Of a stretch of DNA of 15,069 nucleotides, positions 2,779-15,069 are shown piece after piece. Source of the DNA: a virus; the IMG/VR virus record IMGVR_UViG_3300048080_000424, positions 1-15,069 of that record; one strand, written 5' to 3'. The notes beneath the pieces were generated by a model. The model was not told the origin of the DNA, searched no databases, and was given only the letters and a program-made list of their open reading frames with translations. Made by a program: the position numbers and the translations under genes. Within the stretch, counting starts at the first letter, position 1, and every line of letters starts with the position of its first letter.

Positions 2779-2872
2779 GTTTCTGCTGCTCCTCTCGAAT
2801 GGCCGCGAAGTGTGCGGCGATGATGGCTGCGATCGTGATGACGAACATGATTACGCTGGCGTCGGTGAGCAT
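2564..2872 (-). CDS. Possible small membrane protein; only the first ~31 codons are unique, the rest overlaps the next gene out of frame
   Basis: ATG 2872 shares one base with the upstream TGA (TGATG) and follows GAAGGAAGGAG. The N-terminus MLTDASVIMFVITIAAIIAAHFAAI is a clean TM helix. From 2778 downwards the frame runs through the 201-aa gene and becomes R/P-rich shadow-like sequence. Confidence 0.35.
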   Translation of the reverse strand: MLTDASVIMFVITIAAIIAAHFAAIREEQQKREGARSTSNDHQRPHPPRHLRSVEEGPRSVQERARRISRLREARPARRFDHWDRSTVHPAQQPDARPDTDA

Positions 2873-3012
2873 CACTCCTTCCTTCTGCGCAGGTTGAGCA
2901 TCTGGCCGATCTCTTCGACGGTTTTATTGAGCGCTGCCCAGCAGCGCGAGCACCACGGAAAGCCGGTTTTGATGGTGGTGGCTTGGCGGCCGCAGACGCA
3001 GTTGAGTTTCAT
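2872..3012 (-). CDS. Small zinc-ribbon-like protein (46 aa; C-x-C ... C-x2-C)
   Basis: ATG 3012 lies 8 nt after AAAGGA and overlaps the upstream stop (ATGA). The product is MKLNCVCGRQATTIKTGFPWCSRCWAALNKTVEEIGQMLNLRRRKE. Confidence 0.55.
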   Translation of the reverse strand: MKLNCVCGRQATTIKTGFPWCSRCWAALNKTVEEIGQMLNLRRRKE

Positions 3013-3227
3013 GCTGCTGTCCTTTCTGTGAGCGCGAGCGCGAGCTGTTGTTTGGGGTGTTGCAGCGCGCCGAGCACCGTGCAGGCGTGCGAGACGCGAC
3101 ACGGACCGACCGCCCGCCCGGCCACCGTGACGCCGGCGAAGCAGGGCGCGCACCAGCGGCGGAGCGACGCGAGCGGCACCGCGAAGCGGTGACAGCACGC
3201 GCACGGACGGAAGAACGCCGACGCCAC
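3009..3227 (-). CDS. Small cysteine-rich protein (72 aa, 7 Cys)
   Basis: GTG 3227 lies 1 nt after the TAG of the upstream ORF, and the stop overlaps the next ATG (ATGA). The product is VASAFFRPCACCHRFAVPLASLRRWCAPCFAGVTVAGRAVGPCRVSHACTVLG.... Third positions are almost all G/C. This is only the last 72 codons of the 344-aa tracked ORF. Confidence 0.45.
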   Translation of the reverse strand: MASAFFRPCACCHRFAVPLASLRRWCAPCFAGVTVAGRAVGPCRVSHACTVLGALQHPKQQLALALTERTAA

Positions 3228-3228
3228 G

Positions 3229-3525
3229 CTATGCCGCTGGTGGGAGCGCGCAGCCGGAGCAGCGCGTGCTAAGGCAGGACGGGCAGAGACCGGCGACCGC
3301 GACTTGTGCCGAGCGCAGCGCTGCGGCCGCCGGTGGGAGGCCGGCGGTGGCGGCGCGAAGGCCGCCGACCAGCCGGCACACGGAACACACGCCGGACGCC
3401 AGGTACGGCGACGGGGAGCCGCAGCGGACGCACGGCGAGAGCGGGAGACAGAGCCAGCAGCCGGAACCGCGACAGTGGGCACAGGCCCGAAGACAGACAG
3501 CGCAGGTGCAGGAGGTGAGTGCCAT
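3229..3525 (-). CDS. Cysteine-rich protein (98 aa, 15 Cys, seven C-x-x-C pairs)
   Basis: An internal ATG at 3525 is preceded by GAAAGGGG about 9 nt upstream. The product is MALTSCTCAVCLRACAHCRGSGCWLCLPLSPCVRCGSPSPYLASGVCSVCRLVGG...GLCPSCLSTRCSGCALPPAA. It includes one exact DnaJ-type C-x-x-C-x-G-x-G (CAHCRGSG). Third positions are G/C-rich. Confidence 0.5.
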   Translation of the reverse strand: MALTSCTCAVCLRACAHCRGSGCWLCLPLSPCVRCGSPSPYLASGVCSVCRLVGGLRAATAGLPPAAAALRSAQVAVAGLCPSCLSTRCSGCALPPAA

Positions 3526-4331
3526 GTGGGAGACCCCTTTCTGGATTGCAACCCCCGCCCCCGGACGGGGACGGCGAGCGCGTGGGCGACAGGGCCGGCG
3601 CACGCGAGCGCGGCGTCGGAACGCCGGTCGGCGTGTAGCGCGCGCGTGCCCGAAGCGCGCCGAAGGGGGGCGCAGGGCCGCGTATAATTAGCCCTGTGCC
3701 CGCGCGTGTAGCCGGACCCCCGAAGGGCGGGAAATGTGAGGGCGCGACTCGTGGGCGCGCTACCTGGTGAGCGGCGCGACGGCGCGTGAGCCGAGCCCGA
3801 GCCACGGCCACCTTTGCGGTTTAAGGGCTGTGCCGACCGCCAACAGGAGGTGCCTGTGGGGCGGGTGAGGCGAGCGAAAGAGGGGAACGAAGGGTGTTTG
3901 ATTGGGTTCAGTCGTTCCGTGGCGGTGAGCGCGCCTGAGAGCGGGCTGGGGGCACGCGAAAGGGGCGCCTGCGTACGCGGGTGAGCCGTACGACGCCGAC
4001 GTGCGCCGTGAGGCGTCGAGCGACGGGGGCCGCCGCCGGCCACAATGGTTCCCCGCTGAGAGAAGGGCCAGGCGGCGGGCCGGAGCGAAGGTCGCGGCGG
4101 CGTGGTGCGGCGGGTGAGGGTGGACCTGGGCCGGTGGGTGTGCAGACGGAGGCCCGCGAGCGCGTGCGCGCGCCGGTGGTGTGCCTGCCCGTGGGCGGCG
4201 CGAGCCGCCGAGGTGCGAGGTGGAGGCGTGGCGCTGAAGCCATACCCCTGAGTGGAGCGTCTGGGCCTGCTGGTGGTGGGTGTACGGGGTGGCCGTGGTT
4301 GTGCGAAGGCGCGCGAGGCAGGGGCCGGTGG
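3526..4331. other. 805-bp ORF-poor, G-rich (plus strand), hairpin-rich gap downstream of terL; function unknown (pac/cos, ori, ncRNA or decayed gene)
   Basis: No ORF here combines a start codon with protein-like composition. There are many short stable hairpins and recurring GTGAG / CGAAGG motifs. Details are given in the findings. Confidence 0.5.
3668..3701. promoter_or_regulatory. 11-bp stem displaying an AT-rich loop that contains a perfect TATAAT (plus strand, 3683-3688)
   Basis: GGGCGCAGGGC (3668-3678) pairs with GCCCTGTGCCC (3691-3701) with one G-T pair. The loop is cgcgTATAATta. This is the only AT-rich island in the gap. Confidence 0.4.
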
Positions 4332-13969: not shown

Positions 13970-14010
13970 ACGCGCAGTCTATCATGCTGGGGTGTTTCAC
14001 GTGGAACGTT

Positions 14011-14186: not shown

Positions 14187-14266
14187 CAGGTCCCGGAGGC
14201 AGCGCCTTCGGAGGGAACCAGCGGGGGTCTGCCGATATACTAGCACCTGCGTGCTAGACGGTCACC

Positions 14267-14319
14267 TGGAGCGGGAGAAGGGGCTCGAACCCTCGACCCT
14301 CTGCTTGGGAAGCAGAGGG
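14267..14319 (-). other. attP core candidate: 3' half of a tRNA-Gly(CCC), from anticodon arm to CCA; not a complete tRNA
   Basis: The minus strand reads CCCTCTGC-TTCCCAA-GCAGAGGG (anticodon arm, anticodon CCC), then TC, then GAGGG-TTCGAGC-CCCTT (T arm), then CTCCCGC-T-CCA (acceptor 3' strand, discriminator, CCA). No GCGGGAG 5' acceptor strand or D arm lies upstream. Confidence 0.7.
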
Positions 14320-14332
14320 TGGAAAACGTTGT

Positions 14333-14447: not shown

Positions 14448-14945
14448 ATGCCGGAGCCTGTTCGTCGGCTAACCGACGGCCATCAGCCGCCGCTCGTTCG
14501 TTCGATTCCTGGTGGCTCACGCGCGCGATCTGAACGAAGTGATCTGAACGAAAGAAAGAGTGAAAATTCGTTCCTTCGTTCCTTCCCTCAGATCGTTCCT
14601 TCAGATCGGCCGCGCCCGCGGCGGCGTTTGACGCCGACGGGCGCGCGGGTCGCGCGTTGGCTGGAGCGCTGGGTCCCTGTGGAACGTTACGACGGGCCGG
14701 TGCACACGCTGCCAGAGGGCGACGCGACGTTCTATGGTGCGCGCGGTTTTCTTCTCTGCTACGGCGAAGAGCTGGTGCTGACGGCGTTGGCGGACCTGTT
14801 CGTTGATTACGATCCGGAGACCGTCGAGTGGACGTTGCCGCGCGGCGCCCGCTGGCGTGTTCGGTGCTGGCGTCCGGAGATCTATCACCCGGCGCGTTAC
14901 CTGAACTTCTACGTGAAGCAGCTGCGGGGGCTAGCCGATGGCTAA
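14448..14945 (+). CDS. Hypothetical protein (165 aa); N-terminal third doubtful
   Basis: A strong SD, AAAGGAGG, lies 4 nt before ATG 14448. The C-terminal ~105 aa (ARWLERWVPVERYDGPVHTLPEGDATFYGARGFLLCYGEELVLTALADLFVDYDPETVEW...) has G/C-rich third positions. The first ~60 codons have weak third-position bias and contain the GATCTGAA dyad. An in-frame TTG at 14628 is an alternative start without an SD. Confidence 0.55.
   Translation: MPEPVRRLTDGHQPPLVRSIPGGSRARSERSDLNERKSENSFLRSFPQIVPSDRPRPRRRLTPTGARVARWLERWVPVERYDGPVHTLPEGDATFYGARGFLLCYGEELVLTALADLFVDYDPETVEWTLPRGARWRVRCWRPEIYHPARYLNFYVKQLRGLADG
14526..14608. promoter_or_regulatory. 83-bp imperfect palindrome carrying four GATCTGA(A/G) sites around an AT-rich centre
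   Basis: GATCTGAA occurs at 14527-14534 and 14541-14548. Inverted copies are CTCAGATC at 14587-14594 and TTCAGATC at 14600-14607. The dyad centre is at about 14567 in gagtgaaaattcg. TTCGTTCC occurs in tandem at 14567-14582. Confidence 0.5.
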
Positions 14946-15069
14946 GGCGTTGGTGCTTGAGCGCTTCGGCATGGCGACCGAGTCGTCGCGTGAGCAGCAC
15001 GTCGTTGCGCGCGTCGATATGCTGGTCGACTGGACAGTGGTTGGCGAATCGTTCTGCGGCCGGTCGACC
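14938..15069 (+). CDS. 5' part of the 80-aa closure-spanning ORF (continues as 1-238)
   Basis: ATG 14938 overlaps the TAA of the 165-aa ORF (ATGGCTAA). The ORF runs off the window end in frame and resumes at position 1. Confidence 0.6.
   Translation, partial: MAKALVLERFGMATESSREQHVVARVDMLVDWTVVGESFCGRST
14943..15069. repeat. Terminal direct repeat, copy 2 (exact duplicate of 1-127)
   Basis: Same comparison as copy 1. An ORF reads straight through the closure point. Confidence 0.95.

Follow-up and report, generated by a model that had tools for sequence, protein, structure and literature searches.

The window analysed here is the whole 15,069-nt stretch of the IMG/VR virus record IMGVR_UViG_3300048080_000424, and the element in question is a gap of 806 nt without genes. 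The gap follows the large terminase gene terL on the minus strand and ends at a small Cys-rich open reading frame (ORF), ORF-A (Table 1). Our tentative reading is that it is a composite intercistronic region, in which a terminase-linked element resembling a pac or cos packaging site, called M1, is combined with a leader or control region of the downstream module. In the sequences compared, M1 is single-copy and linked to terL, and the conservation of the gap is clearly modular: M1 and a block next to ORF-A are constrained, while most of the gap drifts freely.

The initial annotation, made by a model from the letters of the window, had seen no credible gene between the terL stop (4332) and the ATG at 3525, and comparison with relatives bears this out. 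Related contigs were collected through terL, and the closest relative is L001, with a terL 90% identical to that of the window. In the gap the two differ by indels of 163, 5, 29, 1, 2, 61, 13, 1 and 1 nt, none of them a multiple of three, and the mismatches are without 3-periodicity (counts by phase 10/3/5, 15/12/10 and 10/8/7). The codon-phase GC signal, strong in terL, is gone from 4331 down to about 2950. These comparisons establish 3526-4331 as non-coding. In 3009-3525 all indels are multiples of three (3, 6, 9, 21 and 72 nt). Since indels are in frame there and out of frame in the gap, the ATG at 3525 is the correct boundary, and ORF-A, which it opens, is kept in L001.

A gene-free gap is found at the same position after terL in all members of a clade, defined by a terL at least about 50% identical to that of the window (L001, L006, L085-87, L088, L089, L090, L091, L093-L095, L156, L159 and L164). 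The distance from the terL stop to the ORF-A homologue is 480-1280 nt, a 2.7-fold variation, and no clade member has lost the gap. Gene callers report either nothing or a dubious antisense ORF in it. By the same measure, relatives whose terL is less than about 46% identical have no such gap directly after terL. The gap makes up 5.4% of the replicon (806 of 14,942 nt), in agreement with the roughly 5 percent first estimated as unexplained, and it is unusually long for so compact a genome and worth attention. The accompanying statement that neighbouring genes overlap elsewhere is not always true: the terL start and the portal stop overlap by 4 nt in the window, but the portal and capsid genes are 168 nt apart. 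The suggestion of a decayed gene finds no support: the indels are out of frame, and a tblastx comparison with 234 related loci returns nothing beyond noise, in the form of scattered matches of 22-37 bits in low-complexity sequence. A hidden coding frame reading S-F-P through M1 was rejected, since it does not remain open consistently and lacks conserved flanks.

M1 was found by k-mer sharing and anchored alignment of the clade gaps. It aligns ungapped in 13 clade members, in sequence that is otherwise unalignable. Its half-sites, AAACGA and TCGTTCC, are nearly invariant and their spacing is fixed, with a variable centre; the invariant positions are A8, C10, A12, C30, C35, G36, T37, T38 and C40. 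The core stem never varies, and by pair counting the flanking pairs covary no more than shuffles. The half-sites are kept in sequence and without covariation, which suggests recognition by a sequence-specific protein. A covariance model of M1, R2, finds one copy per clade genome with E-values from 1e-12 to 3e-9, and a weak copy in L089. Over about 1.2 Mb of related loci it gives no convincing match outside the clade except in L169, L172 and L192.

In the window clade M1 adjoins no start codon: it is separated by 140-880 nt from terL, which lies upstream of it, and by 230-500 nt from ORF-A. Over all loci it is single-copy and within 0-900 nt of terL, in two gene arrangements, which is what is looked for in a packaging site. 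Two other identities of M1 were tried and rejected. As an ECF-sigma promoter, judged from alignments read by eye, its AAC...CGT spacing is 24 nt where 16-18 would be needed, and GTT, the alternative, is not conserved. As a LexA site (Cheo box, GAAC-N4-GTTC) its half-sites would have to be 4 nt apart and not about 25; GAACN4GTTC with up to one mismatch has 5 matches against 5.2 expected, none of them in the gap.

The three loci outside the clade form a sister lineage. Their terL is 45-47% identical to that of the window, and capsid, portal and terL are in the same order. In L169 and L172, M1 closes a non-coding spacer of about 415 nt between portal and terL, and the GTG/ATG start of terL lies inside the M1 loop. 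In L192 it ends 5 nt before the ribosome-binding site of terL, AGGAGG. M1 has thus stayed beside terL while its side changed, and such a linkage through a change of position is expected of a packaging site that co-evolves with the terminase. The window gap then reads naturally as three segments in a row: the former upstream spacer (NC1), M1, and the stretch preceding ORF-A, made up of NC2 and the proximal block.

Relatives found through terL show three gene orders: capsid-portal-spacer with M1-terL (L169, L172, L192), integrase-terL-portal-capsid (L096, L171, L173, L195, L204) and capsid-portal-terL-gap with M1 (the window clade). Some phages of the second order have a capsid 75-82% identical to that of the window and a terL only about 45% identical, a mismatch that indicates module shuffling.

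The sister spacer covaries strongly. Between L169 and L172 the sense-strand fold has 13 compensatory changes among 110 predicted pairs, with none broken, and the antisense fold has 17 among 127, with essentially none broken; the strand is not decidable from these sequences. As it lies inside the late operon, the spacer must be transcribed at least in the sense direction. One long GC-rich hairpin (L169 3620-3745, L172 3215-3345) has arms that are wholly different yet complementary, with 8 compensatory pairs in one helix. Covariation had been proposed as a check on the gap, and it is present in the sister lineage (13-17 pairs) but scarce in the window clade, where comparison with L001 gives 1 compensatory pair among 73 in the proximal block and 2 among 48 in NC1.

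The block next to ORF-A is the second constrained module, and it folds more stably than shuffled sequence. Averaged over 9 relatives, z for the proximal 260 nt is about -2.6 with either strand, and in 8 of the 9 these nucleotides fold better than shuffles. The relatives' proximal regions have similar rod-like minimum-free-energy folds, usually one long imperfect hairpin. The gap had been described as hairpin-rich, and overall the excess of folding is real (z = -2.8 sense and -2.6 antisense against shuffles), but it is uneven. It is due to the ORF-A-proximal 260 nt (z = -2.6), while the adjoining distal 300 nt have z = -0.3 and -0.2.

The proximal part of the gap belongs with the module downstream of it, because a similar arrangement is seen in L096, which has a different gene order: a long non-coding stretch, then Cys-rich ORFs and a p201-like gene. 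Two to three tiny Cys-rich proteins always precede a zinc-ribbon protein of about 200 aa (CPxH...C...CxW), namely in the window (2872-3525) and in L006, L085, L088, L090, L091, L093, L094 and L096. The motif of ORF-A is the DnaJ-like CxxCxGxG, and the Cys-rich proteins and the zinc-ribbon protein are without a Pfam, PHROG or PDB match. This includes p201, the zinc-ribbon protein of the window, whose AlphaFold model (pLDDT, the predicted local confidence, 56) is too poor for a fold search. A wider set of p201 in IMG/VR comprises two loci only, both on contigs already known.

For the spacers, a neutral benchmark is given by the four-fold degenerate sites of terL, which are 77% identical between the window and L001. 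The terL-proximal spacer NC1 is neutral-like, because its identity of 77-79% is close to this benchmark, it has large indels and its folding z is about -0.3. The whole of 3769-4331 is 57-79% identical to L001 where alignable, and it holds the large indels. Both spacers, 3924-4331 and 3769-3881, are on these figures largely unconstrained, and their high GC and C-skew would reflect the mutational equilibrium of the genome. Iterated nhmmer from the window gap recovers only L001, and the gaps of the wider clade are unalignable. All-against-all blastn of the gaps gives matches of 60-70% identity that are probably driven by composition, and the 200 nt upstream of M1 yield no consensus fold in 11 members.

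All four hairpins named by the initial annotation are present at the positions it gave: M1 itself, the two capped by GNRA loops (Table 1) and the CGTACG hairpin (3972-3992), which is lost in L001. GNRA-capped hairpins on the plus strand are more frequent than expected (2 against 0.2 in the window, 7 against 2.5 +/- 1.6 in the clade), but so are UNCG loops on the sense strand (4 against 1.1 in the clade). The preference for the plus strand that had been read from the GNRA loops is therefore a weak, unproven signal that picks no strand. UUCG loops were tried as a strand marker and rejected: TTCG outnumbers CGAA on the sense strand, 71 to 19, but it does not rank with the top over-represented 4-mers after dinucleotide shuffling. 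The motif GTGAG, counted about nine times at first, has 8 copies on the plus strand, and its enrichment is mostly one of dinucleotide composition. As a binding motif GTGAG/CTCAC was rejected; it is not among the over-represented k-mers after such shuffling, and 4 of the 8 copies are kept in L001.

Searches for known elements in the gap were negative. The proposed Infernal scan with Rfam 15 (including pRNA, GOLLD, ROOL, group I and II introns and riboswitches) gives nothing at the gathering threshold in the window and 10 relatives, and at E <= 10 the sole match is a chance one to CRISPR-DR20, with 15.8 bits against a threshold of 42. No tRNA or tmRNA was found in the gap, and no iterons or tandem arrays, only short direct repeats in two copies. 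A literature search found nothing relevant. One large structured RNA across the gap, another of the original candidates, is not supported, given the missing Rfam match, a neutral distal two-thirds carrying indels of 29-163 nt, and the lack of matches in other family members to R1, a covariance model of the proximal block.

In the reading we tentatively favour, the gap would be an untranslated intercistronic region on a long minus-strand transcription unit, and not a single gene or RNA. M1 would be a cis-acting site that is tied to the terminase and read by a phage protein: in the first place a recognition or cleavage site for packaging, of pac or cos type, and in the second a control hairpin of the terminase acting in RNA. 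The spacers around M1 would be mostly neutral. The block 3526-3768 would be a folded leader or control region of the module formed by the Cys-rich ORFs and p201, with an AT island resembling a -10 element and a G-rich hairpin at the ribosome-binding site. We infer that the gap is transcribed and that ORF-A is regulated by the proximal block. Since the gap has no promoter of the extended -10 type used by the phage and no terminator, transcription could plausibly run into it from the late operon. The earlier observation that terL is not followed by a terminator stands, as no GC-rich hairpin with a T-run (Rho-independent terminator) is found on the minus strand between 2000 and 5000.

A number of points weigh against this reading. 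That the terminase, or its small subunit TerS, binds or cuts M1 we infer from sequence alone. L161 is without M1 in the available 1.1 kb, and the copy in L089 is weak. Repeated binding sites of TerS type are absent from the gap, and the putative terS is 9 kb from M1; the pac or cos candidate, alone among the four of the initial annotation, gained support, but through M1 and not through terminase-binding repeats. No related contig ends at M1, and in several relatives the contig ends 205-855 nt past terL, although the ends of metagenomic contigs say little either way. The proximal block cannot be followed with R1 beyond the pair of the window and L001. In the sister lineage, the position of M1 on the terL start or ribosome-binding site fits a translational operator in RNA equally well, and the strong covariation of the spacer indicates that a folded single strand, and not duplex DNA, is under selection there. 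The contigs L095, L156, L164, L169 and L172 stop 200-860 nt downstream of terL, in the non-coding region; GC-rich sequence prone to folding could have hampered their assembly, or a true genome end could be close by.

Possible, but on balance rather doubtful, is that the gap holds a cis-acting structured RNA of the late transcript, with M1 as an operator hairpin in the RNA to which a phage protein binds. Such an RNA would control the processing, stability or translation of terL in the sister lineage and of the ORF-A module in the window clade. The sister spacer argues for it, with its 13 compensatory and no broken pairs in a region that must be sense-transcribed inside the operon. So does the placing of M1 around the terL start or beside the Shine-Dalgarno sequence, as translational operators are classically laid out. 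The stable fold of the proximal block in 8 of 9 relatives points the same way, as do the small tetraloop hairpins, which are in excess (79 against 56 +/- 7.6). In the window clade, however, M1 is kept although it is hundreds of nucleotides from any start codon, its stem does not covary significantly, and the comparison with L001 gives only 1 and 2 compensatory pairs. Further, the strand cannot be told, as the antisense fold of the sister spacer has as many as 17 compensatory pairs, and Rfam has no match. A more specific version, which we consider unlikely, is that the DNA adjoining terL encodes an undescribed structured RNA absent from Rfam, with M1 as its core hairpin, which would either work together with the portal and terminase in packaging or regulate terminase expression. 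The sister spacer would be its best-preserved form and the 806-nt gap of the window a relocated, partly degenerate one.

The AT island of the proximal block raises another alternative, to which we also give a low probability: a promoter and operator region for ORF-A, ORF-B, ORF-C and p201, with the island as -10 element and M1 as operator for a phage regulator. The island spans 10 nt, keeps a nearly constant distance of 145-206 nt to ORF-A, upstream of its start, and contains the only perfect TATAAT in the 15 kb. Equivalent hexamers in the same orientation are TAAAAT in L001 and L085 and TATAAT in L091, 163-206 nt from the ORF-A start, and ATTATA is the most over-represented 6-mer of the gaps after dinucleotide shuffling. 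The region also travels with the Cys-rich ORFs and the p201-like gene in L096. Both GNRA-capped hairpins of the plus strand are kept in L001. Half-sites GAACGA/TCGTTC cluster in another control region too, at 14490-14600, where the spaced pattern has 3 matches against 0.02 expected; this cluster is not kept in L001, and its link to M1 remains a lead. On the other side, the TATAAT has neither the TG extension typical of the promoters of this family nor a -35 element, and a consensus scan finds no full promoter. The motif TGnTAnnnT, carried by switch regions of the family, is absent from both strands of every gap. The hexamer is weaker, degenerate or absent in 5 of 9 relatives, and its distance to M1 varies from 50 to 310 nt. 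A variant is that a plus-strand transcript possibly starts at about 3695, crosses the distal gap and reaches the 3' end of terL in antisense orientation, but no plus-strand ORF is conserved, and neutral evolution is seen in the distal gap, where this RNA would lie. A hairpin GGGCACAGGGC/GCCCTGCGCCC around the TATAAT was also considered and rejected, since it is degraded in L001.

It is quite improbable that the gap is a replication origin used by host enzymes, either of initiator or DnaA type or primed by a transcript (R-loop) from the -10 element of the plus strand. The idea draws on the lack of a recognisable replication gene in the 15-kb genome (Pfam, PHROG and other protein searches), on the G-richness such a transcript would have (46% G), on the recurring long hairpin of the proximal block and on the neighbouring, uncharacterised zinc-ribbon protein p201. 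The origin was also a candidate of the initial annotation, but no positive evidence has come up for it: iterons and tandem repeats are absent, as is an AT-rich unwinding element, the only AT island being 10 nt long. With 73-75% GC the gap is the most GC-rich part of a genome of 66% GC. The plus strand is indeed G-rich, as first noted, but this is a property of the genome and not of the gap (GC skew +0.2 to +0.3 everywhere), and the cumulative skew has no turning point here.

Equally small is the chance that most of the gap is filler without a function. It would be left over from a rearrangement in which terL changed place relative to a former portal-terL spacer, and it would persist only because it does no harm or because the capsid requires a certain minimum of DNA. 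The neutral rate of the distal spacers and their tolerance of 29-163 nt deletions, a GC content and skew that match the mutational expectation, the 2.7-fold variation in length and the M1 and spacer found upstream of terL in the sister lineage would all fit. Against this, the gap is present in every clade member, constraint on M1 and on the proximal block is clear, and phages of this genome size are otherwise tightly packed.

Table 1. Features of the gap and of the genes and motifs discussed in the text; positions are those of the window unless another locus is named.
Feature	Position	Strand	Remarks
Whole non-coding gap, 806 nt	3526..4331	-	Loss of codon-phase GC, out-of-frame indels, no 3-periodicity, gene-free across the clade
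M1, single-copy 40-nt inverted repeat	3882..3923	none	CGTC(C/G)AAACGA-N20-(C)TTCGTTCCCC; the hairpin first annotated as GGAACGA/TCGTTCC
Distal spacer NC1	3924..4331	-	77-79% identity to L001; deletions of 163, 29 and 5 nt in L001; no excess folding
Spacer NC2	3769..3881	-	Poorly conserved; deletions of 61 and 13 nt in L001
Proximal conserved block, 243 nt	3526..3768	-	89.5% identity to L001, almost no indels; long imperfect hairpin or multibranch domain
Hairpin GGCGGC-GCGA-GCCGCC	4194..4209	+	GGCGGC-GAGA-GCCGCC in L001, loop stays GNRA; weak, one loop substitution
Hairpin GCGCC-GTGA-GGCGT	4003..4016	+	GCGCC-GTGA-GGCGC in L001
Hairpin directly 5' of M1	3929..3968	-	One compensatory change, C-G to U-A, against L001 (columns 199-238, pair 205/232)
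AT island with the only perfect TATAAT of the genome	3683..3688	+ (antisense to terL)	Sense strand reads AATTAT
G-rich hairpin CCGUCCCC-GUCC-GGGGGCGG	3555..3574	-	Just 5' of the ORF-A ribosome-binding site; G-runs kept in L001, L006, L090 and L091
ORF-A ribosome-binding site GAAAGGGG	3534..3541	-	CAGAAAGGGG conserved upstream of ORF-A in 5-6 relatives
ORF-A, small Cys-rich protein	3229..3525	-	CxxCxGxGC; indels of 3, 6, 21 and 72 nt in L001; homologues follow the gap in relatives
ORF-B, small Cys-rich protein	3009..3227	-	CxCC...W..CxxC..PCRV
ORF-C	2872-3012		Between ORF-B and p201
p201, 201 aa	2173..2778	-	C-terminal zinc ribbon; last gene of the post-gap module
terL (large terminase), 462 aa	4332..5720	-	PHROG phrog_2, 1.5e-9; weak Pfam Terminase_6C; 1600 homologues
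Putative terS, 113 aa	13406-13747	long minus-strand unit	Weak PHROG matches, E ~5e-4
Extended -10 motifs	14237-14245, 13976-13984	-	Also L085 14017 and 14268; L094 15506 and 15781; L089 211

The window is assembled as a circle: 127 nt are repeated identically at its two ends (1-127 and 14943-15069), which leaves about 14,942 nt of unique sequence; L001 is collinear with it across the ends. A tyrosine integrase (Pfam Phage_integrase) is encoded on the plus strand. The long minus-strand unit carries, next to terL, a major capsid protein (phrog_212, 5e-52), an SPP1-type portal (5e-25), the weak terS-like gene, an SU10-adaptor-like protein, a 646-aa protein and genes in the positions of an amidase and a scaffold. 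We consider the element a small temperate podovirus-like phage of Chloroflexota, because its terL homologues lie on many contigs of 14-16 kb and on metagenome-assembled genomes labelled Dehalococcoidia or Chloroflexota. No phage in GenBank has DNA similarity to the window.

The minus strand at 14254-14330 is the 3' half of a tRNA gene, with the T-arm GGTTCGAGCCC and the acceptor end, and is probably the core of attP. In L085 there is a partial tRNA match (Rfam RF00005, 31.7 bits), and the ends of L089 share a tRNA-like repeat of 23 nt; the family appears to integrate into tRNA genes. Just beyond attP, extended -10 motifs TGnTAnnnT (for example TGCTAGTAT, TGGTATAAT and TGCTATAAT) are directed into the structural operon. 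From their placement they look like the main promoters of the family, which suggests a host RNA polymerase dependent on extended -10 elements.

Between attP and the plus-strand operon, a dense cluster of short repeats at 14490-14610 contains GATCTGAACGAA twice, TTCGTTCC twice and ATCGTTCCTTCAGATC, and overlaps the start of a mechanically called ORF (14448-14945). L001 keeps the GATCTGA/TCAGATC units and not the GAACGA part. The cluster is likely the operator array of a lysis-lysogeny switch. The plus strand is both G-rich and T-rich throughout the window, with a GC skew of +0.1 to +0.37 whose sign never flips; as the skew is independent of gene direction, it looks tied to replication or packaging and not to transcription. 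Finally, 6.3 kb are 100% identical between L094 (1-6284, on a contig of 30.7 kb) and L090 (7319-13602), whose terL differ (57% and 50% identity to that of the window), the result of recent recombination or of a chimeric or tandem assembly.

Temperate podovirus-like phages of about 15 kb from uncultivated Chloroflexota and Dehalococcoidia are among the smallest tailed phages, and to our knowledge nothing is known of their cis-acting signals. The 40-nt M1 offers a concrete and testable candidate for a packaging or terminase-control site of the whole group, and its covariance model is a specific probe for finding further members. The gap also gives a caution for genome scans: a striking ORF-free, hairpin-rich stretch in a phage of high GC can be mostly neutral spacer. 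If the RNA reading were true, it would be a new class of phage RNA linked to packaging genes.

Among known systems, phi29 pRNA (Rfam RF00044) is the packaging RNA of small podoviruses. As there, we have a small podovirus-like phage with foldable non-coding sequence linked to the portal and the packaging ATPase. In contrast to pRNA, the gap has no Rfam match, and the clade yielded no conserved RNA comparable in size to pRNA; further, the terL here has a nuclease domain and is thus a classical terminase. The late transcripts of phages also have structured intercistronic processing regions, such as the RNase III sites of T7 and sib of lambda. These share with our loci the long GC-rich hairpins between cistrons of an operon, which covary in the sister spacer, but the gap is far longer (0.5-1.3 kb) and in the window clade mostly unconserved.

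Translational operators of phages are hairpins such as the coat-protein/replicase operator of MS2 and the sites of RegA and gp32 in T4. The hairpin of L169 and L172 is similar in that it encloses the start codon of the gene it would regulate and has a conserved stem and a variable loop. It differs in having a loop of about 20 nt, and in the window clade the nearest start codon is hundreds of nucleotides away from M1.

The closest parallel to the reading we favour are the pac and cos packaging sites in or beside terminase genes, known as cos in lambda and as pac in P22 and SPP1. Their defining traits are cleavage and binding, while M1 is characterised here by its sequence. Unlike these sites, M1 has no array of TerS-binding repeats, adjoins terL and not the putative terS, and coincides with no contig end, and the centres of its half-sites, about 28 bp apart, are more widely spaced than in known cosN sites. 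Like them, it is a single-copy cis element in or beside a terminase gene, linked to it across rearrangements, with two-fold symmetric conserved half-sites around a variable centre, and it can overlap with the beginning of the terminase gene, as it does in the sister lineage.

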